Shown: positions 11,377-53,651, counted from the stretch's first letter. The stretch: DNA of 64,000 nucleotides from Patescibacteria group bacterium (GCA_038064495.1 JBBTSZ010000002.1:216934-280933), one strand, 5' to 3'. Numbers and translations: made by a program. The notes: a model not told the origin generated them from the sequence alone.

Positions 11377-11538
11377 ATGTCTGACAATAAACGTACTCTG
11401 CAAGAAATTGCAGATGATTCCGGTCTCTCGAAGACTGAACTGACCAAACAAGCTATCAGTCTGCTTGCAAGCGCTGACACACCTGAAAAGCGTGCCCAGA
11501 TTATTAGGTTGGCAAGCAACGACTCTCTTGAAGAATAG
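11377..11538 (+). CDS. small hypothetical protein (53 aa, MSDNKRTLQEIADDSGLSK...)
   Basis: RBS gaaaggagg 7 nt upstream; followed by a perfect terminator hairpin. Not in the ORF track (<60 aa). Confidence 0.35.
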   Translation: MSDNKRTLQEIADDSGLSKTELTKQAISLLASADTPEKRAQIIRLASNDSLEE

Positions 11539-11557
11539 TTTCAATTTTGAAAACAAT

Positions 11558-11590
11558 GAGGCGGCCATGTGGCCGCCTCAAGTCTTTATA
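11558..11590 (+). terminator. palindromic hairpin GAGGCGGCCA-tg-TGGCCGCCTC
   Basis: Perfect 10-bp stem 20 nt after the small-ORF stop. Confidence 0.55.
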
Positions 11591-11843
11591 GTGCGGAGAG
11601 TATTTGCCCGTGGAGCCACGCCTTGGCCAACGTGGCTTGTGCATCGGTGAGTTCGGCTCGATGAACGAACTGCGCATTAATGCTTACCGCACGATCACCT
11701 TTCGTAAGGCGCGGGTTCGTCTCGAACCACCCGACGAAATCGTTAGTCGAAAAAATCCGGAGCTCAAAACGCTTTTCATCCGGTTGCACACCAGTACCTG
11801 ACCGCACGTATAGATCATGAGAAGCAAGATCTTTCATCACCAT
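11586..11843 (-). CDS. hypothetical protein (85 aa)
   Basis: ORF only; no recognisable family. Confidence 0.3.
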   Translation of the reverse strand: MVMKDLASHDLYVRSGTGVQPDEKRFELRIFSTNDFVGWFETNPRLTKGDRAVSINAQFVHRAELTDAQATLAKAWLHGQILSAL

Positions 11844-11913
11844 TCTCCCTGGAGCTATTCCAAAGTCTAAGTATAACAGTCACCGCGGACCCGTTACTAA
11901 ACGAAATGGTAGT

Positions 11914-12519
11914 ATGGCGGGAATGGCATACGTCATCATCGGTCTCGGAAATCCGGGAAAAGAATACGCAAAAACACGCCACAACGCGGGACGTATGGCG
12001 GCGGAGAAACTCCAAAAAGAATTTGGCTTTGATGATTTTGCGCTTCGTAAGTCGGCGCAGTCACTGGTGAGCGAAGGAGCGATTGAAGGCGAGAAAGTAG
12101 TGCTTGTTCTTCCTGAAGTGTTTATGAATCTTTCTGGGAAAGTCATTCCAAGTTTTGTAAAAAGCAAACCAGCTGCAAAAAAATTACTCATCATTCGCGA
12201 TGAGCTTGATATGCCACTTGGCACTATGAAAATGACCTTTGGACGGGGAAGTGGAGGACACAAAGGTGCTGAGAGCATCATGCGCGCACTCAAGACAAAA
12301 GAGTTTGCTCAAATCAAGATTGGTATTTCAGGATCCACAGCAAAAGGTAAGGTAAAGAAACCAGGGAGTGAAGAAAAAGTTATTAAGCACGTGATAGGGA
12401 AGTGGAAGCCGGAGGAAGAAACGAAACTCAGGAAGATGTTGAAAAAAACACAAGAAGCAACGGAACACTTCATTGCCGGAGACATAGAAAAAGCGATGCT
12501 CGTCGCGAATACAAAATAG
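11914..12519 (+). CDS. pth: peptidyl-tRNA hydrolase
   Basis: GLGNPGKEYAKTRHNAG N-terminal signature; C-terminal Lys-rich extension. Confidence 0.9.
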   Translation: MAGMAYVIIGLGNPGKEYAKTRHNAGRMAAEKLQKEFGFDDFALRKSAQSLVSEGAIEGEKVVLVLPEVFMNLSGKVIPSFVKSKPAAKKLLIIRDELDMPLGTMKMTFGRGSGGHKGAESIMRALKTKEFAQIKIGISGSTAKGKVKKPGSEEKVIKHVIGKWKPEEETKLRKMLKKTQEATEHFIAGDIEKAMLVANTK

Positions 12520-12544
12520 AAAAATGCCCCAATGGGGCATTTTT
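12520..12544. terminator. bidirectional hairpin AAAAATGCCCC-aat-GGGGCATTTTT between convergent pth and rpsA
   Basis: Perfect stem flanked by A/T runs on both sides. Confidence 0.7.
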
Positions 12545-12564
12545 CTATAGGACTCTCAAAAAAT

Positions 12565-12647
12565 TTCAGATGCGAGGCGCTGGCGAGGAGCGAAGCGAGT
12601 CGTATGTGCTATACGGTGAGCTGCTACCTGCGCCAGCAACAAAGCAG
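12565..12647. repeat. copy B of the roughly 85-nt repeated element, directly 3' of rpsA
   Basis: Same 16-mer ttcagatgcgaggcgc and terminal gcaacaaagcag as copy A at 7494..7577. Confidence 0.6.
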
Positions 12648-12671
12648 GTGAAGGATTTTTGAGAGGACTAC

Positions 12672-13799
12672 CTACTTCTTTTTTGGGTCGACATAGGTAA
12701 GTGTCATTCGCTGGTCCTTCGGCTCAAAGAGCGTGATGGTGAAGGGATAACTCTTGCCAAGTTCAAGTGACTCGCGTAATGCAGCAGGGGAGTCGAACTC
12801 ACTGATGTGGACGAGTCCAGCAACACCCTCCTCAATGGAAGCGAGTGCACCATGCTTGTTGTACTTGATGATGACACCGGAAACTTCCATACCCTTCTTG
12901 TAGCGATCGCTTGCGGTCTTCCATGGGTTCTCCTTGAGTGCCTTGATGGAAAGGGAAATCTTTCCGTCTTTGATCTCAATTACCTTTACGGAGACCTTGT
13001 CGCCAACGGTGAAGAGGGTACGAGGGTCTTCCACAAGGCCCCAATCAAGCTCGCTGATGTGCACGAGGCCTTCAAGACCCTGCTCGAGCTTTACGAAGAC
13101 ACCGAAGTCAACAGCTCCCGTTATCTCACCTTCAATCACGTCCCCAACTTGGTACTTATCAATGAGGTTTGCTTTCTCCTGCTCCTCGTCGCCTGCGCGC
13201 TCAGAGAAGATAAGTTTTCCTTCCTTAGCATCTGCCGTGATAATGCGGACCGGAAGGGCAACACCGACAAGCTTGAGAAGTTCTCCAAAGATTTTTTCTT
13301 TGTCTCCCTCAGGTACACGTGGGTAGTGCTCCTTAGCAAGCTGACTTGCTGGGAGGAAGCCCTGGATACCTTGCCATGAAAGGATGAGGCCACCTTTGTT
13401 TGCTTCTTCAACGGTGAGGTTGTAGACCACCTGTCCTGCGATAGCCTGTTCAGCTTCGCCCCAGATAGCAGCCTGACGAGCTTCCTTAAGTGAAAGTTCG
13501 ATGTAGCCATCAATGCCCGCAGCGTCAACGACTTTTGCCGTGATGAGGTCTCCTGGGTTTGCTTTACGAAGGACGTCAGCAGCGTTGAGGTACTCGCGAC
13601 CATAAATGATGCCGGTACCAAACGGTGGCAAGTCTACGTAGAGGCGTCCACGAACAAGCTCAATAATAGTGCCCTCCACCAAATCACCGGGACGCGGTGG
13701 GGTAGGGATGCTCTCAATAAGCCCCGCCATCGGGTGCTCAGGAGCAAGTACAATAGTGTTGACCACCAAAGGCGCGGCCTTCTTCTCTTCAGTTTCCAT
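12672..13799 (-). CDS. rpsA: 30S ribosomal protein S1 (short, about 4 S1 domains)
   Basis: Repeated S1/OB motifs (GDLVEGTI..., GDVIEGEI..., GMEVSGVI...). Confidence 0.8.
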   Translation of the reverse strand: METEEKKAAPLVVNTIVLAPEHPMAGLIESIPTPPRPGDLVEGTIIELVRGRLYVDLPPFGTGIIYGREYLNAADVLRKANPGDLITAKVVDAAGIDGYIELSLKEARQAAIWGEAEQAIAGQVVYNLTVEEANKGGLILSWQGIQGFLPASQLAKEHYPRVPEGDKEKIFGELLKLVGVALPVRIITADAKEGKLIFSERAGDEEQEKANLIDKYQVGDVIEGEITGAVDFGVFVKLEQGLEGLVHISELDWGLVEDPRTLFTVGDKVSVKVIEIKDGKISLSIKALKENPWKTASDRYKKGMEVSGVIIKYNKHGALASIEEGVAGLVHISEFDSPAALRESLELGKSYPFTITLFEPKDQRMTLTYVDPKKK

Positions 13800-19448: not shown

Positions 19449-20747
19449 ATGAAGCCCTTTCAAATAATCACCATTTCTGTCTTCGCTCTGCTCGCGCTTG
19501 TGGGCCTCTTTCTCTTTGCCACCTTTAAAGGATTCGGCGGAGCAAAACCACTCGGAAATGTGATGATATGGGGAACACTCTCCGCTGATGCACTGCAGCC
19601 AGCACTCAACGAACTGAAACGAAATCACAAAGAGTTTGATAAGGTCGCTTATCTTGAACGAAACGAGAGCACGTTTGATGCTGACCTTGCCGAAGCAATT
19701 GCTTCAGGTACGGGTCCCGATATGATTATCATTACGCAGGAACAACTAACGGCAGAAATACCAAAGCTGTCCATTATTCCCTACGCTACGATTCCAGAGC
19801 GCACCTATCGCGATACCTACGTACCTATATATGAACTCTTCCTGGATCGTAATGGTACGTTTGGTGTTCCATTTGTCGTTGACCCGCTCGTCCTCTATTA
19901 CAACCGCACCCTACTCGCAAGTGGTGGTCTTGCACAACCACCAACAACCTGGGAAGCAGTCGTCGGACTCGCTCCCACGTTAACGAGAAAGAGTGATACC
20001 GGAGTCGTGAGCAGAAGCACCGTTGCTTTTGGCACGTATGAGAACATTCCAAACGCCAGAGCCATTATTTCCTTGCTTCTACTGCAATCGGGAAGTCAAA
20101 TAACCACCTACGGCACGCTCGGCATCACCGGCGCACTTGCTTCGGGTGGCTCTTCCGCTGCTTACAGCCTTTCTCCAGCTGAGTCAGCCGTCAGTTTCTA
20201 CACCCAGTTCGCTGATCCCGCTAAGGTGGTCTACTCGTGGAACCGCTCTCTCCCAAGCGCTCGCCAAGCATTCACTTCAGGGGACTCCGTGTTCTATGTG
20301 GGATTTGCCTCTGAAGCAGCCTTACTCAAAGCGACAAACCCAAATCTAGACTTTGATATGGCTCCGGTGCCTCAGCCTCAGACCGCACAAACAAAGACCG
20401 ACTATGGACTCGCCTATGCGTTCGCCATTCCAAAAGCCGCCAGTAATCCTGACGGTGCGTACAAGACCGCCCAGGCCTTAACGGCGAAGGATGAACTCTA
20501 CATTATTGCCGGATCGCTTGGCATGGCCCCTGCAAAGCGTGCCTTTCTGACGCCACAAACAAACGATATTTTTGCTTCGGTGTATTACCCAATGGCGATT
20601 ATAGCGAAAGGATGGCTGTCCCCAACGCCAGGCGTAACCGACGCAATTTTCACTGCTATGATTACGGATGTGATAAGCGGTCGCTCAAACGTGCATGATG
20701 CCATTAAGCGGGCAGATGATGCGCTCTCCGCCGCGTTTTCTCACTAA
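19449..20747 (+). CDS. extracellular solute-binding protein family-1-like lipoprotein/secreted protein; no cognate ABC permease or ATPase nearby
   Basis: N-terminal TM/signal, then SBP-like fold hints (MIWGTLSAD..., VPFVVDPLVLYYN). Confidence 0.5.
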   Translation: MKPFQIITISVFALLALVGLFLFATFKGFGGAKPLGNVMIWGTLSADALQPALNELKRNHKEFDKVAYLERNESTFDADLAEAIASGTGPDMIIITQEQLTAEIPKLSIIPYATIPERTYRDTYVPIYELFLDRNGTFGVPFVVDPLVLYYNRTLLASGGLAQPPTTWEAVVGLAPTLTRKSDTGVVSRSTVAFGTYENIPNARAIISLLLLQSGSQITTYGTLGITGALASGGSSAAYSLSPAESAVSFYTQFADPAKVVYSWNRSLPSARQAFTSGDSVFYVGFASEAALLKATNPNLDFDMAPVPQPQTAQTKTDYGLAYAFAIPKAASNPDGAYKTAQALTAKDELYIIAGSLGMAPAKRAFLTPQTNDIFASVYYPMAIIAKGWLSPTPGVTDAIFTAMITDVISGRSNVHDAIKRADDALSAAFSH

Positions 20748-20750
20748 ACT

Positions 20751-21266
20751 ATGCAAATTAAATGGCAAGAAGCCACCTCACTCATTCCACTTTTGCTCTT
20801 AGGTTTATGTAGCTTTACGTTTTCGGCTCAGGCTGCGGCAACAATTCCAGGCGTAATCTTTGAGAATGATCCTCCAGCGAAGACAACGGTTCTTCTGCCG
20901 TCTGCATCAACTCCCGCACCAACAAAACCAGCTACGCCAGGTGCAACTGGAGCCACTTCTCCGGGCGCGGCAACTGGCCAGACATCAACTCAGTCTGGTT
21001 CGCCAACAGGTCTCCAAAATCCGCTTCAGGCAGGAACACTTGAAGAGCTTCTTACTGCGATTCTTAAGGGCGTTGTAGCGATTGGTGCCATATTCCTTAC
21101 CTTTATGATTATCTATGTCGGCTTCCTCTTTGTAGCTGCGCGCGGGAACGAAGAAAAAATACGTGATGCGCGTCAAGCACTTGTCTGGACCGTGATTGGA
21201 GGACTCCTTTTGCTTGGTGCTGAAGCCATAAGTCTGGTCATTCAGTCTACGGCGCAAACGTTATGA
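20751..21266 (+). CDS. pilin-like paralogue P1: signal peptide, Pro/Thr/Ala-rich linker, two TM helices (VirB2/TrbC-like topology)
   Basis: Signal peptide plus the conserved two-TM module shared with the next four ORFs (..F..GF..V...GNEEK.R....L.W..IG). Confidence 0.55.
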   Translation: MQIKWQEATSLIPLLLLGLCSFTFSAQAAATIPGVIFENDPPAKTTVLLPSASTPAPTKPATPGATGATSPGAATGQTSTQSGSPTGLQNPLQAGTLEELLTAILKGVVAIGAIFLTFMIIYVGFLFVAARGNEEKIRDARQALVWTVIGGLLLLGAEAISLVIQSTAQTL

Positions 21267-21589
21267 GCCCCTTCACAAGACTGTTTTCGCTGCTTCCCGC
21301 ATTTCTGTTCGTACTCATTCCACTGCACAGCGCTTTTGCGGCAACTCCCACGTTTGAAGAGTGGGTAAATAACACTGCAGTTGGATTCGTTGATTCCTAT
21401 GTGATACCGCTCCTCTACGCAGTTGCGTTCCTTGTTTTTATGTTCGGTGCCTTTCGCTACTTCTTTACCGGCGGGGAGGAAAACAGGGAAAAGGGACGTG
21501 CTTTTCTCCTTTGGTCCATTATCGGCATGGTCGCAATATTTTCCGTGTGGGGCGTCGTGAATCTACTCCTTACTGCTCTTCCGCAGTAA
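21263..21589 (+). CDS. pilin-like paralogue P2
   Basis: AFLVFMFGAFRYFFTGGEENREKGRAFLLWSIIGMVAIFSVWGVVNLL module; signal peptide; 4-nt overlap with P1. Confidence 0.6.
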   Translation: MSPFTRLFSLLPAFLFVLIPLHSAFAATPTFEEWVNNTAVGFVDSYVIPLLYAVAFLVFMFGAFRYFFTGGEENREKGRAFLLWSIIGMVAIFSVWGVVNLLLTALPQ

Positions 21590-21638
21590 CGTGTATAACT
21601 GCTTGATTCACGCCAAGCGCTTGCTAGGCTTCATCTAT

Positions 21639-22319
21639 ATGACACATTTCCGTACCCTACTCACCGGCATTTCAGCTGTGGCGCTTCTGTTTATCGTTAA
21701 CGTTCCGCATGCCCTTGCACAAACAGCAACCAATAGCTCAGCACCCATAGACCAGCTGGGTCAATTCTTACAACAGTTCATTCGCTTTTTTGACCTCTAT
21801 CTGGTCCCGCTCATATTTGCACTCGCCTTCATCGTGTTCTTGTGGGGCGTCTATCGGTACCTCATTCTTGGTGCTGACAACGAGGAGAAACGTCAGGAGG
21901 GTCAAAAGTTCATCATGTATGGCCTTATCGGTTTCTTCATCATGATTTCAATTTGGGGGATTGTTAATTTACTTGTCGGTTCGCTTGGTTTCGGAAATGA
22001 TCAGCGTCCCAATCTTCCGACCTTCGGTTCACCCTCTCAATCAGGAAGTAACGGTTCAAAGATTCTTCCAAGCAGTCCGTCAGTAAACACGACTGGATCT
22101 GCCAATACGAGCGGAGGTTCTGTTACCCCGGGAAACACGTCTACAGACTGTCGTTCTGACGGTGTGTGTCCTGCTAACACCGTTTGTTCGTTTAGCGGTA
22201 CGCAAGCAGGGCAATGTATAACCACGAACCCTCAAGATTGTCGTCTTCCGAACACAGCCTGTCCTTCAGGATACGTGTGTAACGCAAACAATGGTCTCTG
22301 TAAATTGAATTCAATATAG
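21639..22319 (+). CDS. pilin-like paralogue P3 with a C-terminal Ser/Thr/Gly linker and an 8-Cys extracellular domain
   Basis: Module AFIVFLWGVYRYLILGADNEEKRQEGQKFIMYGLIGFFIMISIWGIVNLL, then CRSDGVCPANTVCSFSGTQAGQCITTNPQDCRLPNTACPSGYVCNANNGLC. Confidence 0.6.
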   Translation: MTHFRTLLTGISAVALLFIVNVPHALAQTATNSSAPIDQLGQFLQQFIRFFDLYLVPLIFALAFIVFLWGVYRYLILGADNEEKRQEGQKFIMYGLIGFFIMISIWGIVNLLVGSLGFGNDQRPNLPTFGSPSQSGSNGSKILPSSPSVNTTGSANTSGGSVTPGNTSTDCRSDGVCPANTVCSFSGTQAGQCITTNPQDCRLPNTACPSGYVCNANNGLCKLNSI

Positions 22320-22415: not shown

Positions 22416-22775
22416 ATGAAGAAACTCGGCTACACTCTCGCAGCTTTTGCCACGCCTTTTCTTGCGTTTGCACAGGTGCAAACCATTAATGACGCAGGTA
22501 GAATCGTGATTGATATCATTAACAATGTTGCGGTACCTATCGTATTCGCACTCGCCTTCATCGTCTTTATCTGGGGTATCTTTCGATACTTCGTTCAAGG
22601 AGGACACGACGAGGAAAAACGTGAAGACGGTAAGCAGCTCATGCTCTGGGGCCTCATTGGTTTCTTTGTCATGGTCTCGGTGTGGGGCTTAATCCACATC
22701 CTCATTGGAACCTTCAACTTGAACCCAGCTATTCCAAATTATCCAACCGCACCGTATACCACGAAAGGACGCTAG
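22416..22775 (+). CDS. pilin-like paralogue P4
   Basis: AFIVFIWGIFRYFVQGGHDEEKREDGKQLMLWGLIGFFVMVSVWGLIHIL; signal peptide ending AFA-QVQ. Confidence 0.6.
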   Translation: MKKLGYTLAAFATPFLAFAQVQTINDAGRIVIDIINNVAVPIVFALAFIVFIWGIFRYFVQGGHDEEKREDGKQLMLWGLIGFFVMVSVWGLIHILIGTFNLNPAIPNYPTAPYTTKGR

Positions 22776-22797
22776 TTTCCTATAGCACTCTCCTTGG

Positions 22798-22826
22798 AAA
22801 CCCGCGCAATCCTTGCGCGGGTTTCT
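22798..22826 (+). terminator. hairpin AAACCCGCGCAA-tcc-TTGCGCGGGTTT after P4
   Basis: Perfect 12-bp stem. Confidence 0.5.
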
Positions 22827-22841
22827 GCTATGATAGAGAGC

Positions 22842-23099
22842 ATGAATACAGAATTCAACGCATTTCTCGGTAAAGTTGAACAGGCTATTTTGAACCCACT
22901 CATCACGCTTTTGATACTGGCCGCGTTCGTGCTCTTTGTATATGGGGTCGTTGAATTCATTGCTGGAGCGGGAAATGATGAAAAAAGAAAGATAGGTCAG
23001 CAACATATGATATGGGGCTTCATTGGACTTGCCATTATGTTTGGTGCTAAAGGCATTGTGGCGCTTCTTGCAAGTACGTTTGGCGTTCCGGTCCCCTAG
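22842..23099 (+). CDS. pilin-like paralogue P5 (most divergent; no obvious cleavable signal)
   Basis: AAFVLFVYGVVEFIAGAGNDEKRKIGQQHMIWGFIGLAIMFG module. Confidence 0.5.
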   Translation: MNTEFNAFLGKVEQAILNPLITLLILAAFVLFVYGVVEFIAGAGNDEKRKIGQQHMIWGFIGLAIMFGAKGIVALLASTFGVPVP

Positions 23100-30582: not shown

Positions 30583-31344
30583 ATGAATCTAGAAGACCTG
30601 AACAAAAGCCAACTCCTCCTGCTCACGGTATTGGTGAACTTCGTGACCTCTATTGCGGTCGGTGTGCTGACTGTGTCACTCCTCGACCAGGCACCGCCTA
30701 CGGTCACTCAGACCGTAAATCGTATCGTGGACCACACAGTAGAAACGATTGCCTCCACGACGCCGATTCAGACCTTCATACCGATACCGTCTAAACCCAC
30801 AACGGTAGTGATTCATGATGAGGATCTGCTCACGGCAGCACTTGCTGCTGATGTTTCTCGAACTGTACGCCTCTATGTGAGATCAACCAGTACTCCTGCC
30901 GTTGCTATCGGCACCTATCTACCAAACGCACGTGCGGTTGCAACGGCAACAACGCTCGGTTTGCCACGAGAAATTATCGTCGCCTTTTCTGATGGTTCAA
31001 GTGCACCTGCATCTCTCTCACGTGCAGGAGCGACCCTCACCATTTACGGATTCTCCGACACGAGTGCACTGCCGAAAGTCCCGGTACCAAATCTCATCTC
31101 ACGTACGGACGTAAAGCAGGGACAGACGGTCCTTGCAATTGGAAGCGGCGGAAGTGCCTTTACCGGTATTGTTTCAAAGATAGACGACTTTATTCATACC
31201 AGCCTCATGAATATTCCGGTTGGTGCAGCCGCCGTCAGTAGTTCGGGCAATATCGTTGGTATCTCCATTGATGGAGCCGGCACGTTTGCAAGTGCCGACA
31301 AGATAACCATTCTTTTGAGTGCAACATCTTCGCCCGCAAAGTAG
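30583..31344 (+). CDS. membrane-anchored hypothetical protein, possibly a degenerate trypsin-like fold
   Basis: N-terminal TM; GQTVLAIGSGGSAFTGIVS is HtrA-like but has no obvious catalytic triad. Confidence 0.35.
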   Translation: MNLEDLNKSQLLLLTVLVNFVTSIAVGVLTVSLLDQAPPTVTQTVNRIVDHTVETIASTTPIQTFIPIPSKPTTVVIHDEDLLTAALAADVSRTVRLYVRSTSTPAVAIGTYLPNARAVATATTLGLPREIIVAFSDGSSAPASLSRAGATLTIYGFSDTSALPKVPVPNLISRTDVKQGQTVLAIGSGGSAFTGIVSKIDDFIHTSLMNIPVGAAAVSSSGNIVGISIDGAGTFASADKITILLSATSSPAK

Positions 31345-34033: not shown

Positions 34034-34741
34034 ATGGAAACTGAACAAAACGAGCGCCAGGAACTGGAGCAGCTTTCTCGCGAACTTGTTGATGAGGCAG
34101 TGCTTGTTGAATACAAACAGACCTACGATAACTATCACATCTCGTTTATTCCGAGCATGCTTGGAGCCGTACTCGTGTTCTCCGGGAATCTAGTCTACGG
34201 AAAACGTCCTTCCTATATGAAGTTTCGTGCGGTGGAGGTTATCGCACGAGTTCCCTATCATTCATGGAGCTCAGCGGCATACACACTCCTCACCATGTTC
34301 TACAGCAACGAGCAGAAAGCACTGAAGCTGTCTGAAGTCTCGCAATTCTCACGCATTGCGCAGGATAACGAAACCATGCACGTGGTGGTCATTTCTAAAC
34401 TAGCCTGTCTGGAACACCGCGTGAATTTTTTCGTACACACCCTTATTCCGATGATTTTTGCGTTCTTCTACTTCTGGGCTTCCTACATTTTGTATTTGAT
34501 TAACCGAAAGTATTCACTTGAGCTCAATTATTGTTTTGAGCAACACGCGTTTGATCAATACAATCAGTTTCTGAAGGAGAACGAGGAAGCGCTCAAAGGG
34601 AAGCCGATAGAGAGTGAATTTCTTTCGTGGTACGGCAGAAATCCCACCAACCAGTACGATTTCTTTATGGGCGTCCGGAATGACGAAATCATCCATCGTA
34701 ATATGTCGGCGCATGTGCTTCAGGGTCTGAAGAAGAAGTAG
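34034..34741 (+). CDS. alternative-oxidase-like membrane-associated diiron carboxylate protein (AOX/PTOX family)
   Basis: Four spaced iron-ligand motifs: AVEVIARVP, QDNETMHVVV (E..H), LELNYCFEQHA (E..H), RNDEIIHRNMS (DE..H); hydrophobic mid-region. Confidence 0.55.
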   Translation: METEQNERQELEQLSRELVDEAVLVEYKQTYDNYHISFIPSMLGAVLVFSGNLVYGKRPSYMKFRAVEVIARVPYHSWSSAAYTLLTMFYSNEQKALKLSEVSQFSRIAQDNETMHVVVISKLACLEHRVNFFVHTLIPMIFAFFYFWASYILYLINRKYSLELNYCFEQHAFDQYNQFLKENEEALKGKPIESEFLSWYGRNPTNQYDFFMGVRNDEIIHRNMSAHVLQGLKKK

Positions 34742-36365: not shown

Positions 36366-36427
36366 ATCAAGATCGCAAAAGGCGCTGGGGTCGATCCCGG
36401 CGCCTTTTACATTCCCTTGTTCGAAAG

Positions 36428-36498
36428 CGGGCCCACGAGGAATCGAACCTCGACTATCGGTTTTGGAGACCGATGTTCTACCACTAAACTATGGACCC
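36428..36498 (-). tRNA. tRNA-Trp (anticodon CCA)
   Basis: RC: GGGTCCATAGTTTAGTGGTAGAAC...stem TCGGT loop CTCCAAA...GAGGTTCGATTCCTCGTGGGCCCG. Confidence 0.75.
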
Positions 36499-36589: not shown

Positions 36590-37588
36590 ATGCGGAGATA
36601 TCTCCTTCCAGCGCTCCTTGCGCTCTGTATAGTGTTTCTGCCGAGTATTGCGTCAGCAGAGTCTAATGCAGGAATCTTCGCGCCAGTCATTTCTGACGTC
36701 TGCACGTGTCCAGGCACTGCTCCTGGTTTTGGATGCATTCTAGACACCATACAGAACCTTCTTAACCTCGGCGTCTCACTTTCAGCGATGCTTGCGGTGC
36801 TCATCATTGCCTACGCAGGTACCCTTCTCATCTTTAACCCAACCAAACCGGAGTACCGGACACAAGCGAAAGGCATGCTCGCGAATGTTGCCATAGGCAT
36901 GGTCATCGTACTCGCCTCCTGGCTCATCGTTGATTTTGTGATGAAGATTGTCTACAACCCCGGTGCGGTATTTTCGGGAAATGTTATTGGACCTTGGAAC
37001 GATATTCTTGGTGGTGGCGAGGCCTGTATTGTTGCTCAACAACTCGACACCATCTTTGATGGAAATCTAGTGACGACGCCGACGACCGATGTGGCTGCAA
37101 GTGGAGGTGTACTCACCAACTCTGGAAAAGGAGCTTGTAATGCAATAACGGTTGCACAAAGTGCCGCCGCAGGTGGAGCACGCATGTCCACACAGGAGGC
37201 GAACATTCTTGCCTGCGTGGCAGGTCCGGAAAGCCAATGTGGTGCAGTGTTACAAAACTATAATTGGAACGGCGCAAAAAGCTATCCACCTTCAACCGCG
37301 TACGGGCCCTTTCAGATTACACTCAAAGGAAACAGCGGCTGTTTTGAGAATGCAGCTTGCTATCAAGCCGCCGGTGTTAGTGGATCGCTAAACTGTGATG
37401 CAGCGTTTGATTCAAAAGGCTATGCAATTCCCGGTGCCAGGCTTGAACAGTGCAAGCGTGCCGCCGCGAACCTCACGTGTAGTTCGGTTGCTGCAGATTG
37501 TGTATATCGTAAGCAAGGTGCAAGTGCGTGGACAGCTGATAAAAGTAGTTCAAAGCAACAGGCGTGCATCTCTGGTAATGGAGGCTAA
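36590..37588 (+). CDS. pilin-like N-terminal module (signal peptide, CxCPG...GC, two TM helices) fused to a Cys-rich C-terminal domain with a possible lysozyme/lytic-transglycosylase-like motif
   Basis: The N-domain is paralogous to that of the 38156..39100 ORF. The C-domain has ...QEANILACVAGPESQCGAV...STAYGPFQI (E-S ... A.G..Q resembles the SLT/lysozyme-like signature). Confidence 0.5.
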   Translation: MRRYLLPALLALCIVFLPSIASAESNAGIFAPVISDVCTCPGTAPGFGCILDTIQNLLNLGVSLSAMLAVLIIAYAGTLLIFNPTKPEYRTQAKGMLANVAIGMVIVLASWLIVDFVMKIVYNPGAVFSGNVIGPWNDILGGGEACIVAQQLDTIFDGNLVTTPTTDVAASGGVLTNSGKGACNAITVAQSAAAGGARMSTQEANILACVAGPESQCGAVLQNYNWNGAKSYPPSTAYGPFQITLKGNSGCFENAACYQAAGVSGSLNCDAAFDSKGYAIPGARLEQCKRAAANLTCSSVAADCVYRKQGASAWTADKSSSKQQACISGNGG

Positions 37589-37597
37589 ACTACAACT

Positions 37598-38152
37598 ATG
37601 AAAAAGGCGCTCATCATCATTTCAGTCATACTCGTGCTTTTGCTTGTTGCCGGACTTGGTTACTATTTCTATACCCATACAAAGACCCCACAGGCGCCTG
37701 ATAGTACAAATACATTTCCGATCGGTGATATGAATCAAGGAGGTAGTTCAACCATGGTAATACCTGCTGAGGATGGAGGTAGCATCTCCACATTGGATTT
37801 CATACATAACAACGTCACGTTTGAAGATCCTGCGAATAAGGGCGACTACTATCTTGCCGGAAGTAATGACATTTGTAATCCAGACGGTACCTGTCCAAAA
37901 GCAGGCACGTCTACCCATTTCAATATTCTGTATTTCTCAGACTCTGGTTCTTTCGTCATAAGTCTTAATGAAGAACCACTTGGTCAGATTCGCAGAGAAG
38001 CAGAAGAGTATCTCATACAAACGCTTGGTATAACGCAAGAGCAAATGTGTAAACTAAACTACACCATCGGTACGACGTCATACATCAACGACACATTTGG
38101 AGGTGAGAATTTAGGATTCAGTTTCTGTCCCGGAGCAGTGAAGCTCCCTTAG
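37598..38152 (+). CDS. membrane-anchored secreted hypothetical protein
   Basis: N-terminal TM; 9-nt spacing after the previous gene; sits between two paralogous fusion genes. Confidence 0.4.
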   Translation: MKKALIIISVILVLLLVAGLGYYFYTHTKTPQAPDSTNTFPIGDMNQGGSSTMVIPAEDGGSISTLDFIHNNVTFEDPANKGDYYLAGSNDICNPDGTCPKAGTSTHFNILYFSDSGSFVISLNEEPLGQIRREAEEYLIQTLGITQEQMCKLNYTIGTTSYINDTFGGENLGFSFCPGAVKLP

Positions 38153-38155
38153 ACT

Positions 38156-39100
38156 ATGTGTAGATTCCTCATCCCACTTCTCGTCACGGTCTTCCTCATA
38201 GGAATACCACTCATGGCACAGGCTGCCGATACCAGTTTCTTTGGCCCTATCGTTCCGACACAATGTAATTGTCCGGGTGAAGCCCCGGGTCTTGGCTGCA
38301 TTCTTGAAAGCCTCCGGCTTTTGATGAACCTCATCATTTCCATCGCCTGTGTGTTCCTTACGCTCATCATTGCGTACGGTGGCCTCCTTTTCATGATGGG
38401 TGCGACGAACCCCTCGCAACGCGAGACCGGTAGGAACGTGCTCATCAACGGTTTCATCGGTATTGTCATCGTCTTGTCGGCCTGGCTCCTGGTTGATTTC
38501 ATTATGAAGCGTCTGTATAACTCAAACTCTTTCGGACCGTGGAACTCTATTTTGCTCGGTCAAGGAGAGCTCTGTCTGCATAAACAACAAACCGGAGAAA
38601 TATTTACTGGAAATATTGTAGTAACTCCAACCACAAACCCTGGTTCTGCGGGTGGGGCAGGTGGAAGTGGTGGGAGTGGTGCAAATTGTCCTGCCGCTGA
38701 CCCTGGAAGCATGGTTAACTTTCCAGCTTCAGCAACCTCAGGTGCGGCCGAGAAGGCAACTCCTACAACCGTGCAGAATTTCCTTGCCATGCGAGCTGCT
38801 GCACTTAAAGAAGGTATTGATTTAAAAGTAACGGATGGATATCGATCTGAGTCCGAACAAATAGCTCTGTGGGATAGATATGGGCACGACACCAGCCAGG
38901 CAGCTCGACCTTGTACGCTCGGAGGTGGTGGGTCAAATCACAACTCTGGAACGGCGGTTGACCTGACCGTCGGTTGTGCCAAGACGGATAGTTCGTGCAA
39001 CAGTCCACAGTACCGCTGGTTGAAGGCAAATGGTTCCAAGTGGAATTTTAGAAACGCACTTCCAACTGATACGGTGCACTGGTCGCCAAGTGGTACCTAA
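38156..39100 (+). CDS. pilin-like N-terminal module fused to an M15/VanY-type D,D-peptidase (LAS metallopeptidase) domain
   Basis: The N-domain shares CNCPGEAPGLGCILESL...IIAYGG...GIVIVLSAWLLVDFIMK..YN...FGPWN with the 36590 ORF. The C-domain has SNHNSGTAVDL (SxHxxGxAxD) and TVHWSPSG, preceded by a Gly-rich linker. Confidence 0.6.
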   Translation: MCRFLIPLLVTVFLIGIPLMAQAADTSFFGPIVPTQCNCPGEAPGLGCILESLRLLMNLIISIACVFLTLIIAYGGLLFMMGATNPSQRETGRNVLINGFIGIVIVLSAWLLVDFIMKRLYNSNSFGPWNSILLGQGELCLHKQQTGEIFTGNIVVTPTTNPGSAGGAGGSGGSGANCPAADPGSMVNFPASATSGAAEKATPTTVQNFLAMRAAALKEGIDLKVTDGYRSESEQIALWDRYGHDTSQAARPCTLGGGGSNHNSGTAVDLTVGCAKTDSSCNSPQYRWLKANGSKWNFRNALPTDTVHWSPSGT

Positions 39101-39966
39101 GTAAGATTTTCTAGAGAGAGTTTCCGAAGCCACGCTTTTTGGTGACGAGCATAGTGCCAGAGGCGTGATGAAAGAGTAGGTAAAAGGGAATCAAACGAGC
39201 GTTCACCACGGAGATACTCACCAATAATTTTATACTCAAGACCAAGTTCCTGTAGGCGCTCGTCTCCGACGTACGCGCGGACACGCTCCACCTCATCTAT
39301 AAGGCCTTTCTCAAGAGATTCCATCAGACGCTTGCGCAAGCGTGCTCGTAGTTCGTCACGTTCAGGATTAAGTACCACCCACCCCACCTCATAGCGAGGT
39401 AGAAGGGTGTCTCGCTCAGGCACACTCCCGTTTTCAGCAATAATTTCAAGAGCACGGATAAGGCGTCTGCGGTTTTTTGGGTCAAGACGTACGGCTCGTC
39501 GTGGATCTGCATCACGCACCCGATTCATTAATTCTTCATCGCTCACGGTTTCAAGCTCTCTCCGCAAATCCTCATTCTTTGGAATCTCGGCTGGAAGTCC
39601 GTAGATAAGCGCATCAAAATAAAAGTGTGTTCCTCCAGCAAGTATCGGTAGCTTGCCACGAGCAGATAACTCAGTAATGAGTTTGTCAGCGTCTTGCACA
39701 AAATCTCCTGCACTGTAGGTTTCTCTCGGGTCACGAATGTTAATGAGGTGATGAGGTATTCCATCCATTTCCTCTTTGGTGATTTTTTCAGTGCCGATAT
39801 CAAGCATCTGATATATCTGACGTGAATCAACCGATATAACTTCCCCGTCTAATTCCTTAGCAAGTGCAATAGCGCGTGCGGTTTTTCCTGAGGCAGTAGG
39901 GCCCACAACCGCAATAACCTTCAAAAGAGGATTTTTTTTGGTGGACCCTGGTTCCGGTGATATCAT
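39097..39966 (-). CDS. miaA: tRNA dimethylallyltransferase
   Basis: P-loop GPTASGKTA, SVDSRQIYQMLDIGTEK, HHLINIRDP. Confidence 0.85.
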   Translation of the reverse strand: MISPEPGSTKKNPLLKVIAVVGPTASGKTARAIALAKELDGEVISVDSRQIYQMLDIGTEKITKEEMDGIPHHLINIRDPRETYSAGDFVQDADKLITELSARGKLPILAGGTHFYFDALIYGLPAEIPKNEDLRRELETVSDEELMNRVRDADPRRAVRLDPKNRRRLIRALEIIAENGSVPERDTLLPRYEVGWVVLNPERDELRARLRKRLMESLEKGLIDEVERVRAYVGDERLQELGLEYKIIGEYLRGERSFDSLLPTLSSRLWHYARHQKAWLRKLSLENLT

Positions 39967-51708: not shown

Positions 51709-52737
51709 ATGGCTCATCAATCGCTGTATCGTGCGTATCGTCCAAAAACCTTTAAAGAGGTGGTAGGACAGAACCACGTTACCGAACCCCTTCAAGAGCA
51801 GATAGCAACAGGAAAGGTCGCTCACGCCTATCTCTTATCAGGCTCACGAGGACTCGGAAAAACCTCCATCGCGCGCATCTTTGCGCGCGAGCTCGGCACG
51901 AGCGATAAAGATCTCTATGAAATAGACGCAGCGTCTGCAAACAGTGTGGACGATATTCGTCAGCTCACGGAAAACGTCTATACTCTTCCGTTTGAGTCAA
52001 AATATAAGTTCTATCTTTTGGACGAGGCACACATGCTTTCCAAAGCCGCGTGGAATGCTTTTTTGAAGACGCTGGAGGAACCACCAGCCTACGTAATTTT
52101 TGTACTCGCCACGACCGAGCTTGAAAAAATACCTGACACGGTGCGCTCGCGCACCCAAGTGTTTGAACTGAAGAAACCTACACGTGTCGGCCTGAGCAAG
52201 CTTATTAGTGAGGTCGCAAAGAAAGAAAAATACACGATTGAACCAGGTGCTTCAGAGCTCATCTCACTTCTTGCCGAAGGTTCCTATCGTGATGCACTCT
52301 CTATTCTTGAGAAAGTCTTTTCCGTTTCAAAAGATAACAACATTAGCCTTACTGAAGCGGAATCTGCGACAGGTGCGCCCAAGCGCGCACTCGTTCTCGC
52401 GTTGGTGAACGCCCTTAGTGAGGGTTCAGCTGAAAGGGCACTAACCGCAATCCGGAAGGCAAGTGAAGGTGGCGTAGATATGCAGTTGTACCTCACGCTT
52501 CTACTTGAAGCACTGCGTACCGTGCTCCTGTTTCGTCACGCTCCGGAGCTTCGTGCAGAGCTTAAGACTGAGCTCGGGACAGATGAATACACCGAGCTTG
52601 AAGCACTCGCAAACGAAAAAGAGTCAAAGATTACTCACACGACCCTGCTCGCATTTCTAAACGCCGCAAGCACGATGCGCTACTCACCCATCCCAGCGCT
52701 CTCGCTTGAACTTGCGGTGTACGACGTCACATCATGA
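51709..52737 (+). CDS. dnaX: DNA polymerase III subunit gamma/tau (short form)
   Basis: YRPKTFKEVVGQ, P-loop GSRGLGKTS, SRTQ sensor; 342 aa. Confidence 0.75.
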   Translation: MAHQSLYRAYRPKTFKEVVGQNHVTEPLQEQIATGKVAHAYLLSGSRGLGKTSIARIFARELGTSDKDLYEIDAASANSVDDIRQLTENVYTLPFESKYKFYLLDEAHMLSKAAWNAFLKTLEEPPAYVIFVLATTELEKIPDTVRSRTQVFELKKPTRVGLSKLISEVAKKEKYTIEPGASELISLLAEGSYRDALSILEKVFSVSKDNNISLTEAESATGAPKRALVLALVNALSEGSAERALTAIRKASEGGVDMQLYLTLLLEALRTVLLFRHAPELRAELKTELGTDEYTELEALANEKESKITHTTLLAFLNAASTMRYSPIPALSLELAVYDVTS

Positions 52738-53651
52738 CCAAGCTATCAGCCGGACTCGCAATCCTTCTGACACTCGTGGCGTGCGCCACGCTCGGCACCA
52801 CCATCTATGTATATGGAGTTCCCCAGATATCTCGTTCATTGTTTGAAAAACCGTGCCGTGATCCGATAGCCATACGCATAGAAAGTATTGACCCCAAGTT
52901 TAATCTCACAAAAGGTGAGTTAGTCACGGCGCTGACTGCTTCTATGAAGCTGTGGAATGAAGTAGCGGGTAAAGCGGTGTTTACCTACGAACCTGATAAT
53001 GTGCACGCATTACCGATTCGCCTCGTGTACGACGCTCGCCAGCAGACGGTAGCGCTTGGGCAAGCAATAGATTCAACAGAGGCACGACAAATGGAATCAC
53101 GTGCACATATTGAGTCACTCCAGTCAGCGTATGAAAAAGCGACCGCTGAGTATAACCAGCAACTCCAAGCATTTAATGAGGAAGCAAATGCGTACGAGAA
53201 TGAAGTGAAGACCGTGAATGCACAGGGTGGAGGGAATGCTGAGACTGTAAAAAGATTAAATGCAGAACAAGTACGACTTCAACAAGAGCAAAAAGAATTG
53301 AATAAGCAAAGTGCGGCATTGAAGGCACAGGGCGATGCGCTCAAAAAAGAAATTGCCGCATTCAATGCGTCGGTAAAAGATGTGAACTCAGTGGTGCAAG
53401 CCTTTAATTCGCAAGCAGGAGGAGATTTTGAAGAAGGGCAGTACACCAAGGACGCGTCTGGAGCGCGCATCGCCATCTATGCGTACAAAACAAAAGATGA
53501 ACTACTGCACTCACTCGCGCATGAACTGGGCCATGCACTTGGTCTTGAGCACAACAATAATCCGGCATCCATCATGTATCCCTACAACAAGAGTGGGACG
53601 AAGGTGAGTAGTGACGATATTGCGGCACTCAAGAAAGTCTGCGGTAGCTAG
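52734..53651 (+). CDS. matrixin-like (M10) zinc metalloprotease lipoprotein with a central coiled coil
   Basis: Lipobox LVACAT, HELGHALGLEH (HExxHxxGxxH) plus Met-turn SIMYP. Confidence 0.6.
   Translation: MTKLSAGLAILLTLVACATLGTTIYVYGVPQISRSLFEKPCRDPIAIRIESIDPKFNLTKGELVTALTASMKLWNEVAGKAVFTYEPDNVHALPIRLVYDARQQTVALGQAIDSTEARQMESRAHIESLQSAYEKATAEYNQQLQAFNEEANAYENEVKTVNAQGGGNAETVKRLNAEQVRLQQEQKELNKQSAALKAQGDALKKEIAAFNASVKDVNSVVQAFNSQAGGDFEEGQYTKDASGARIAIYAYKTKDELLHSLAHELGHALGLEHNNNPASIMYPYNKSGTKVSSDDIAALKKVCGS

Follow-up and report, generated by a model that had tools for sequence, protein, structure and literature searches.

Pilin-like hairpins bearing exchangeable, putatively wall-cutting heads in an operon of a Patescibacteria bacterium

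Background

A very large part of bacterial diversity belongs to the Patescibacteria, whose cultivated representatives live attached to other cells. Why would enzymes predicted to cut peptidoglycan be built, in such an organism, upon a membrane module that resembles a secretion pilin? The question is raised by a stretch of 64,000 nucleotides from a Patescibacteria group bacterium (GCA_038064495.1 JBBTSZ010000002.1:216934-280933; 'the window' hereafter means this whole stretch), in which three adjacent genes encode two proteins that begin with a common module, similar to the VirB2 pilins of type IV secretion systems (T4SSs), and end in different heads, together with a small membrane-anchored protein that lies between them. 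Comparison with related genomes shows the module to be, at the level of sequence, a carrier for swappable heads, and the reading that we favour, with about even confidence, is that this hairpin couples interchangeable wall-cutting heads to a T4SS-type pilin system, such that the wall would be cut where the apparatus crosses it. The operon may consequently be how these ultra-small cells open a wall, be it their own or that of a host, and one large clade would then have joined wall hydrolases to the pilin module itself.

A pilin-like module shared by two proteins

Gene 1 (open reading frame (ORF) A, 36590-37588, 332 amino acids, a pilin-module protein with a lysozyme-like head), gene 2 (ORF B, 37598-38152, 184 amino acids) and gene 3 (ORF C, 38156-39100, 314 amino acids, a pilin-module protein with an M15/VanY head and matches to PF18895 and PF02557) lie head to tail on the plus strand, as do all features below unless stated otherwise, and the gaps of 9 bp (A/B) and 3 bp (B/C) between them indicate a single operon. 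A database search found identical public proteins for ORF A and ORF C (P0001 and P0058), which come from a contig of 565,823 bp in a metagenome-assembled genome (MAG) of a 'Patescibacteria group bacterium' and are named 'MAG: pilin' and 'MAG: D-alanyl-D-alanine carboxypeptidase family protein', respectively. An original prediction, made from the window alone, held that two ORFs share an N-terminal module, differ in their C-termini and flank a small transmembrane protein, and it proved correct in its coordinates and in the motifs that it quoted: ORFs A and C are 44% identical over residues 1-167 (E 3e-46), past which no significant similarity is left, and ORF B has one transmembrane segment at its N-terminus. 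The Cys-box motifs are present in both proteins (CTCPGTAPGFGC and CNCPGEAPGLGC), as is the element WL.VDF.MK..YN...GPWN...C.

In a hydrophobicity scan three stretches stand out in each protein (residues 2-25, 54-85 and 94-123 of ORF A; 1-26, 45-84 and 93-121 of ORF C). The first corresponds to a predicted signal peptide, for which cleavage sites were placed by the -3,-1 rule and the AxA motif; in ORF A it covers residues 1-23 (36590-36658), with the AxA end ...SIASA before ES. The mature VirB2-like module extends over 36659-37090 in ORF A, where PF18895 matches residues 52-117, and over 38225-38650 (residues 24-165) in ORF C, where it matches residues 56-116. In ORF A the order of parts is a CxCPG...GC box, helix 1 (approximately residues 54-82), a basic loop (83-95), helix 2 (approximately 96-122) and a neck reading GPWN...C146, and an AlphaFold2 model of this protein (mean predicted local distance difference test score 83) places helices at residues 47-82 and 87-121. 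The loop between the helices is net positive, with three (A) and two (C) Lys and Arg residues against one Asp or Glu, which puts the loop inside, and the Cys box and everything past helix 2 outside the membrane. ORF A homologs all carry C146 and W136 and almost all carry C40, and G103, W111, D115 and M118 of helix 2 are invariant or nearly invariant. Extracytoplasmic Cys residues, counted without the signal peptides and one transmembrane Cys of ORF C, number 4+10 in A, 4+4 in C and 4 in B, and such even counts in all three proteins fit oxidised extracytoplasmic domains. Disulfide stapling of the neck fits these counts and the conservation of the Cys residues, from which any pairing would have to be deduced.

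The likeness to VirB2/TrbC pilins that the original prediction drew from topology holds at the level of the domain family. The T4SS_pilin family PF18895 matches ORF A with 42.9 bits and ORF C with 39.2 bits, both above its gathering score of 26.6, and the signal peptide and two-helix topology agree with it. The TrbC/VirB2 family PF04956 reaches 16.7 bits in ORF A, below its gathering score of 27.9, and is not listed for ORF C, and the NCBIfam model NF045849 (pilin-like conjugal transfer proteins of Mycoplasma integrative and conjugative elements) gives 26-27 bits for both, under its cut-off of 40. When the PDB was searched with the ORF A model in Foldseek, nothing came back under E 5, the best pilin match being the Aeropyrum conjugation pilus (8dfu, E 6.6), so that a pilin fold is unconfirmed by structure search, as a helical hairpin resembles many things.

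With mature lengths of about 309 (A) and 291 (C) amino acids, both proteins are unlike the small stand-alone pilin subunits of about 70-100 amino acids; plain family members of 101-171 amino acids are also encoded in the window. A profile of the N-terminal module recovers 10,952 cluster representatives at E ≤ 1e-3, a number that falls to 114 at E ≤ 1e-30; the best 150 relatives are nearly all 300-450 amino acids long and carry the module at the N-terminus, which indicates that the extended module almost always bears a head. Separately, four proteins (P0263, P0266, P0270 and P0276) contain 5-16 tandem pilin hairpins per polypeptide, with 16 matched stretches in the 1775 amino acids of P0266; such pilin 'polyproteins' would not be expected if each subunit has to insert as a hairpin of two helices.

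The lysozyme-like head of ORF A

The head of ORF A (37127-37585; approximately residues 180-332, with ten Cys) contains the motif PES...AYGPFQI, in which STAYGPFQI follows the candidate catalytic pair E214-S215. We found 57 homologs of ORF A, most of them full-length, and E214 and S215 are invariant in 53 sequences. E214 aligns with E35 of human lysozyme, and the position of the second catalytic Asp of glycoside hydrolase family 22 (GH22; D52/D53) is taken by Ala237, which is nearly invariant. Among 30 heads of the family, nine match PF00062 (best E 1e-3) and three match PF18896 (best E 4.3e-5), and a relative in the same head cluster (P0148) is the only member to reach the SLT gathering score, and then just so (21.8 against 21.3). 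Three independent lines of evidence, together with the invariant E214-S215, assign a lysozyme fold to this head, in agreement with the earlier suggestion that it is lysozyme-like, and it is probably a cleaver of glycan strands. A single catalytic Glu without the second Asp makes chemistry of the lytic-transglycosylase or goose type likelier than the retaining mechanism of c-type lysozymes.

The M15 peptidase head of ORF C

ORF C continues from the module through a Gly-rich linker (38651-38737, residues 166-194, reading ...PGSAGGAGGSGGSGANCPAADPG...) into a zinc-peptidase head of the LAS/M15 type (38738-39097, residues 195-314). PF02557 (VanY) matches residues 202-304 with 54.1 bits, against a gathering score of 25, and the motifs SNHNSGTAVDL and HWSPSG are present. 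The zinc ligands that the original prediction expected (H-x6-D ... H) are in place: the substrate-binding Arg R230 and, in the site SxHxxGxAxD...H, residues S260, H262, G265, A267, D269, D305 and H308, which include the triad, are invariant in 41 family members.

An M15/VanY head is thus well founded, but the D,D-specificity that was proposed with it is less so. Three residues before its last His the head carries an invariant Asp (D305-T-V-H308, hence D-x-x-H), at a position where VanX, VanY and LdcB carry the Glu of an E-x-x-H motif, and the nearest solved relative is the L-alanyl-D-glutamate peptidase of phage A500 (2vo9, E 5e-7), well ahead of YodJ, the LdcB homolog of B. subtilis (4ox3, E 1.5e-3). 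The best PHROGs matches of ORF C are likewise endolysins. With a phage endopeptidase as nearest relative and a D-x-x-H motif, the name of D,D-carboxypeptidase is not secure, and a stem-peptide endopeptidase appears at least as likely as a D-Ala-D-Ala carboxypeptidase. That ORF C might trim pentapeptide stems in VanY/LdcB-like wall maturation, and not be a lytic endopeptidase, would agree with the Pfam match, with the conserved SxHxxGxAxD and R230, and with weak matches to the NCBIfam models VanY-A, DdpX, VanXY and LdcB; yet it has to contend with the rank of the two solved relatives, the invariant D305, the endolysin matches, and the fact that the same slot in sister genomes holds CHAP-like, NlpC/P60-like and other heads, and we consider it improbable.

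Distribution of the cassette and exchange of heads

Species-representative genomes were scanned with a profile of ORF B, and the 70 loci obtained were annotated with local hidden Markov models; most are labelled Parcubacteria, Paceibacterota, Kaiserbacteria, Adlerbacteria or Nomurabacteria. In the 60 loci with enough upstream sequence, a pilin-module gene immediately precedes the ORF B homolog 57 times, and 55 of these genes have a lysozyme-like head. In 65/70 loci the cassette has miaA as a neighbour, and an upstream clpB was detected in 37. By contrast, a third pilin-module gene is present in 15 of 68 loci, and its heads are diverse (five c3, two VanY, two c4, one each of c2, c5, c7 and s146, and two unclassified). 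Eight longer loci, extended by ±10 kb flanks, give the same picture of a core pair with an accessory third gene. A near-invariant pair beside a third gene in 15/68 loci identifies the pilin-lysozyme protein and ORF B as the conserved core and the VanY gene as an accessory, swappable part, and the original prediction, which centred on A and C, needs correction here. By its gene order, the pair is a vertically inherited core unit.

The head classes were defined by clustering the C-terminal regions after 30 residues (shared neck and Gly-rich linker) had been trimmed, and the module carries at least seven of them. Exchange is evident from proteins that agree in the module and part company thereafter. 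Two proteins from the same slot of two genomes, P0142 (c4 head) and P0133 (VanY head), hardly differ over residues 22-160 and diverge after that; the third genes of L063 (c4) and L074 (c5) share 79% identity over the first ~175 residues only, and those of L006 (c4) and L023 (c2) share 73% over 150 residues. Within single genomes, gene 1 (lysozyme) and gene 3 (c7) of L025 are 90% identical over 175 residues, and gene 1 and gene 3 (c3) of L066 are 84% identical over 158 residues.

All heads that can be assigned are wall hydrolases. Lysozyme/SLT and VanY heads are identified by significant matches, and CHAP (c5), NlpC/P60 (c7) and M15_3/Hedgehog-like (s146) heads by weak Pfam matches. Isolated c2, c3 and c4 heads gave no Pfam match, profiles of the c4 and c2 heads found chance-level matches only among PDB sequences, and the c3 profile found a sub-threshold Hedgehog/LAS match there (E 0.1). 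Motifs resembling H-x6-D...H can be made out by eye in c2, c3, c4 and s146, and BLAST places the c4 motif on the VanY zinc site; links between head classes in hhalign are modest, however (vany-s146 44%, c4-s146 35%, c7-c5 60% probability), so that these motifs stay unproven.

The original prediction regarded the fusion as unusual and undescribed, of which the second half holds so far. No paper on pilin-hydrolase fusions was found in the PMC open-access subset or bioRxiv, nor did we find there a description of the extended module as an exchangeable hydrolase carrier, of a conserved pair of lysozyme-pilin and ORF B, or of a recombining third slot. Rare, however, the fusion is not, with about 80 clusters that combine PF18895 with PF02557, about 55 of the lysozyme-headed form, and the variety of head classes given above; the domain combination is common in one clade and its proteins are automatically annotated, and so it is no unique oddity. 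The extended CxC...GPWN...C pilin module can serve as a bioinformatic marker for further such proteins, and several unassigned head families plus one ectodomain of new fold, described below, are flagged as probable wall-active proteins.

As a separate matter, several contigs (L029, L033, L039, L056, L077 and others) are titled Saccharibacteria, Demequinaceae, Bacillota or Bdellovibrionales and possess the synteny of Paceibacteria (clpB ... cassette ... miaA, parB, relA, topA); they are likely to be mislabelled or mis-binned MAG contigs.

The partner protein ORF B

ORF B consists of an N-terminal transmembrane anchor (residues 1-28), a linker rich in Ser, Thr and Pro, and a conserved ectodomain with four Cys that ends in NLGFSFCPGA..LP. 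No known inhibitor fold was found in it, and the ectodomain was rated a new fold. A homolog of ORF B always follows gene 1, and no such partner gene follows gene 3 in the window. At one locus (L051, 7001-8979) ORF B is duplicated in tandem and a pilin-module gene with an unclassified head comes next; a large serine recombinase gene (11527-12849) lies 2.5 kb downstream there, and miaA is missing.

Constraint on the hairpin

If the hairpin were a plain anchor, its helices might be expected to vary as freely as those of other anchors, and ORF B provides an internal control in this regard, with majority-residue frequencies of 0.36 in its transmembrane helix and 0.62 in its ectodomain. Helix 2 of the pilin module reaches 0.66 (A family) and 0.77 (C family), which matches or exceeds the values of the catalytic heads (0.61 and 0.70). 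Conservation of helix 2 to the level of the heads, which the plain helix of ORF B does not share, indicates that the hairpin is under constraints beyond the needs of a passive tether. Moreover, the modules of gene 1 and gene 3 have a mean identity of 51.8% within a genome and 38.1% overall, an excess to be explained by gene conversion, by duplication more than once, or by adaptation of both modules to one shared partner.

Pilin arrays and secretion genes

The window contains a second pilin locus, 14 kb upstream of the operon, in which a gene for a solute-binding protein (SBP_bac_1, 19449-20747) directly precedes five plain PF18895 pilin genes in tandem (20751-21266, 21263-21589, 21591-22319, 22416-22775 and 22794-23099), encoding proteins of 101-242 amino acids, the third of which has a Cys-rich C-terminal tail. 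This array resembles the 'VirB2 arrays' of Patescibacteria, yet no T4SS machinery gene is nearby. In the divergent locus L077 (2379-9684), the gene order is SBP_bac_1, bipA, a pilin gene with a weak SLT_3 match, an ORF B homolog and several plain pilin genes, one of which encodes 360 amino acids with two pilin repeats, and the two separate loci of the window are thus united in one cluster. The L077 record is labelled 'Bdellovibrionales', probably through a binning or labelling error.

Cultivated Patescibacteria are obligate epibionts, and the single species among them that is open to genetics cannot do without its arrays of VirB2-like pilins (PMC10633639); most genomes with VirB2-like pilins are without a recognisable VirB1 wall hydrolase (PMC12102498). 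Hydrolase-fused pilins are not mentioned in the main text or the two text supplements of that array survey, and these two supplements contain no VanY or SLT_3 entries (PMC12102498).

A proposed role and its alternatives

In the reading favoured here, the products of genes 1 and 3 are exported by the Sec route, and the first ~165 residues of each adopt a VirB2-like hairpin with the N-terminus and the neck after helix 2 outside and the basic loop inside. A neck outside the membrane implies heads on the external side of the membrane, in the wall, where the gene 1 head would cut glycan strands and the LAS/M15 head of gene 3 the peptide stem. The gene 2 product is a membrane-anchored partner that always travels with gene 1, and the hairpin would act as a shared, exchangeable carrier and not as a passive anchor. 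Glycan and peptide would both be cut locally where the apparatus passes, in the cell's own wall and possibly in that of an attached cell, and the operon may in addition supply the 'missing VirB1' function. A bolder version, which as a whole we think unlikely, would make the hydrolase-headed pilins minor or priming subunits of a T4SS-type pilus in a monoderm, built in first and hence placed at its tip as a 'drill bit' through the cell's own wall and then that of the host, with ORF B restraining the lysozyme head at the producer's membrane and the third head swapped by recombination to match the peptidoglycan chemotype of the current host. If true, this would be a previously unknown coupling of wall lysis to a secretion pilus, and a handle on how epibionts of the candidate phyla radiation breach their hosts. 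The operon yields clonable candidates, in the form of two heads, one putative regulator, and catalytic residues for mutation.

Several points weigh against a coupling to pili. To our knowledge, polymerisation has been shown for no VirB2-like protein of Patescibacteria, and 'pilin' is in these cases a predicted annotation. No genes for VirB3, VirB4, VirB6 or VirD4 were found in the window or among the called genes of the eight related loci with their ±10 kb flanks, for the head of ORF A in the window no Pfam lysozyme model gives a match, whatever the threshold, and a role for ORF B as putative regulator, inhibitor or scaffold of the lysozyme head is proposed from synteny alone. The neighbourhood of the operon is, furthermore, one of housekeeping genes (clpB, miaA, prx, parB, relA, topA), which ordinary envelope maintenance would fit equally well. 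Walled bacteria generally need hydrolases for the enlargement of the wall, and the two enzymes could be housekeeping autolysins with which the growing and dividing cell remodels its own wall, the hairpin being a passive two-helix tether drawn from an abundant family with no pilus or T4SS involved. A position among housekeeping genes that is fixed in 65 of the 70 species loci, the lack of T4SS genes in the window and the eight loci, and an organism that makes peptidoglycan and divides with FtsZ and FtsA (as its genes for alanine racemase, FtsZ and FtsA indicate) all accord with such autolysins. A mere tether, on the other hand, does not sit well with a helix 2 conserved like the active-site domains when the plain anchor of ORF B is poorly conserved, or with the excess module identity of A and C within genomes (84-90% in two of them), which suggests gene conversion or a shared partner peculiar to the genome; so quick an exchange of the third head between peptidases of unrelated fold would be unusual for a core housekeeping enzyme, and in L077 a plain pilin array directly adjoins the pair. 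We regard autolysins on a passive tether as a possible but rather unlikely explanation.

Head swapping is, on the other side, what a contact-dependent effector and immunity system would lead one to expect, in which the T4SS-type apparatus, by way of the pilin module, presents or releases polymorphic wall-degrading heads onto a host or competitor and ORF B is the cognate inhibitor that shields the producer's own wall from the lysozyme head. This is a sharper form of the surface apparatus against a neighbouring wall that the original prediction had in mind. The antibacterial T4SSs of Xanthomonadales deliver peptidoglycan hydrolases with immunity proteins, and a constant N-terminal module with variable enzymatic heads and an adjacent small gene follows the logic of polymorphic toxins, as does the 73-90% identity confined to the first 150-175 residues between differently headed proteins. 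The ectodomain of ORF B lies outside, where an immunity protein must act, and co-occurs strictly with the lysozyme gene, and the obligate epibiont life of cultivated Patescibacteria, in which T4SS pilin arrays are essential (PMC10633639), would suit such a system. No known inhibitor fold was recognised in ORF B, as noted above. We consider this explanation doubtful. A remnant of a prophage lysis cassette, with a tethered endolysin, a holin-like transmembrane protein and an endopeptidase, might be suspected from three small membrane proteins in a row and from the likeness of the ORF C head to phage endolysin peptidases. ORFs A and B, however, match no PHROGs family, no phage genes flank the operon, its GC content shows no anomaly, the same chromosomal slot is occupied in 65/70 species, and the module belongs to a pilin family of about 11,000 relatives; on the strength of the conserved synteny and the PHROGs result we reject a prophage origin, which we judge extremely improbable.

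Genomic setting

The operon is chromosomal, in a Patescibacteria genome of the Paceibacteria type, which agrees with the original placing of the organism in the candidate phyla radiation. It is preceded by a tRNA-Trp gene (36427-36498, minus strand) and followed by miaA (39097-39966, minus strand). A scan for promoters and terminators gave signal at background level, and a scan with Rfam gave tRNAs and nothing else. ORFs of at least 600 amino acids in the window are limited to gyrA, clpB, relA/spoT and topA; each of the other large ORFs either is a housekeeping gene or lacks a Pfam match.

Three further genes of the window merit mention. Just after clpB, at 34034-34741, lies a gene for a di-iron protein similar to alternative oxidases (PF01786, 34.7 bits against a gathering score of 22.7), and the same position holds a weak match to alternative oxidase in L008 and a BLAST match in L056; a respiratory chain is generally lacking in Patescibacteria. 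An ORF of 253 amino acids without Pfam match (30583-31344), between a gene for a class-V aminotransferase (NifS-like) and clpB, is kept at that position in 28 of the related loci. At 52734-53651, a protein of 305 amino acids has a C-terminus of the matrixin/M10 type of zinc proteases (PF00413, 40 bits).

Comparison with known systems

With the VirB2/TrbC pilins and the arrays of Patescibacteria (PF18895/PF04956; PMC10633639, PMC12102498), ORFs A and C have in common a signal peptide, two helices and a short basic loop. They differ in length (about 310 and 290 residues against ~70-100), in the addition of a Cys box, a GPWN...C neck and an enzymatic head, and in the location of their genes, which are not next to virB4. 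In their heads they resemble more familiar enzymes. The ORF A head differs from GH22 c-type lysozymes, from the SLT domains of family GH23 and from PF18896 in having Ala in place of the second Asp, in reaching no Pfam threshold, and in its ten Cys, its different C-terminal half, and its bacterial origin and membrane tether. The ORF C head shares the SxHxxGxAxD motif, the triad with the final His and the substrate Arg with Ply500 (2VO9), LdcB/YodJ (4OX3) and VanY, and is distinguished from them by the pilin hairpin to which a Gly-rich linker joins it and by two conserved Cys pairs.

As a combination, the operon comes close to the VirB1-like hydrolases PrgK of pCF10, TraG of pIP501 and CwlT of ICEBs1, which open the wall for a T4SS in monoderm bacteria and which are likewise membrane-anchored, extracytoplasmic, and equipped for both glycan and peptide cutting. 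Those hydrolases are single polypeptides, with one N-terminal transmembrane segment and two catalytic domains, encoded inside a T4SS operon; here the two predicted activities are divided between two proteins on pilin-type hairpins, with a conserved third partner and no T4SS operon nearby. The effectors of the Xanthomonadales T4SS, and polymorphic toxins at large, also have hydrolase payloads, a conserved trafficking part and an adjacent envelope partner. Their trafficking signal in the Xanthomonadales system is a C-terminal XVIPCD read by VirD4, whereas the constant part of the operon proteins is an N-terminal pilin-like hairpin, with no VirD4 in view, and ORF B is only a putative inhibitor when set beside the immunity proteins of that system. 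A last parallel is offered by the modular type IV pilins PilB and PilC of Streptococcus sanguinis (PMC8179133). The principle is common to both, a pilin module being grafted to a functional C-terminal module by which a filament system could display an activity. PilB and PilC belong to an unrelated pilin class with a class III signal peptide, however, and are known to polymerise, and where ORFs A and C bear putative wall hydrolases they bear adhesins or lectins.

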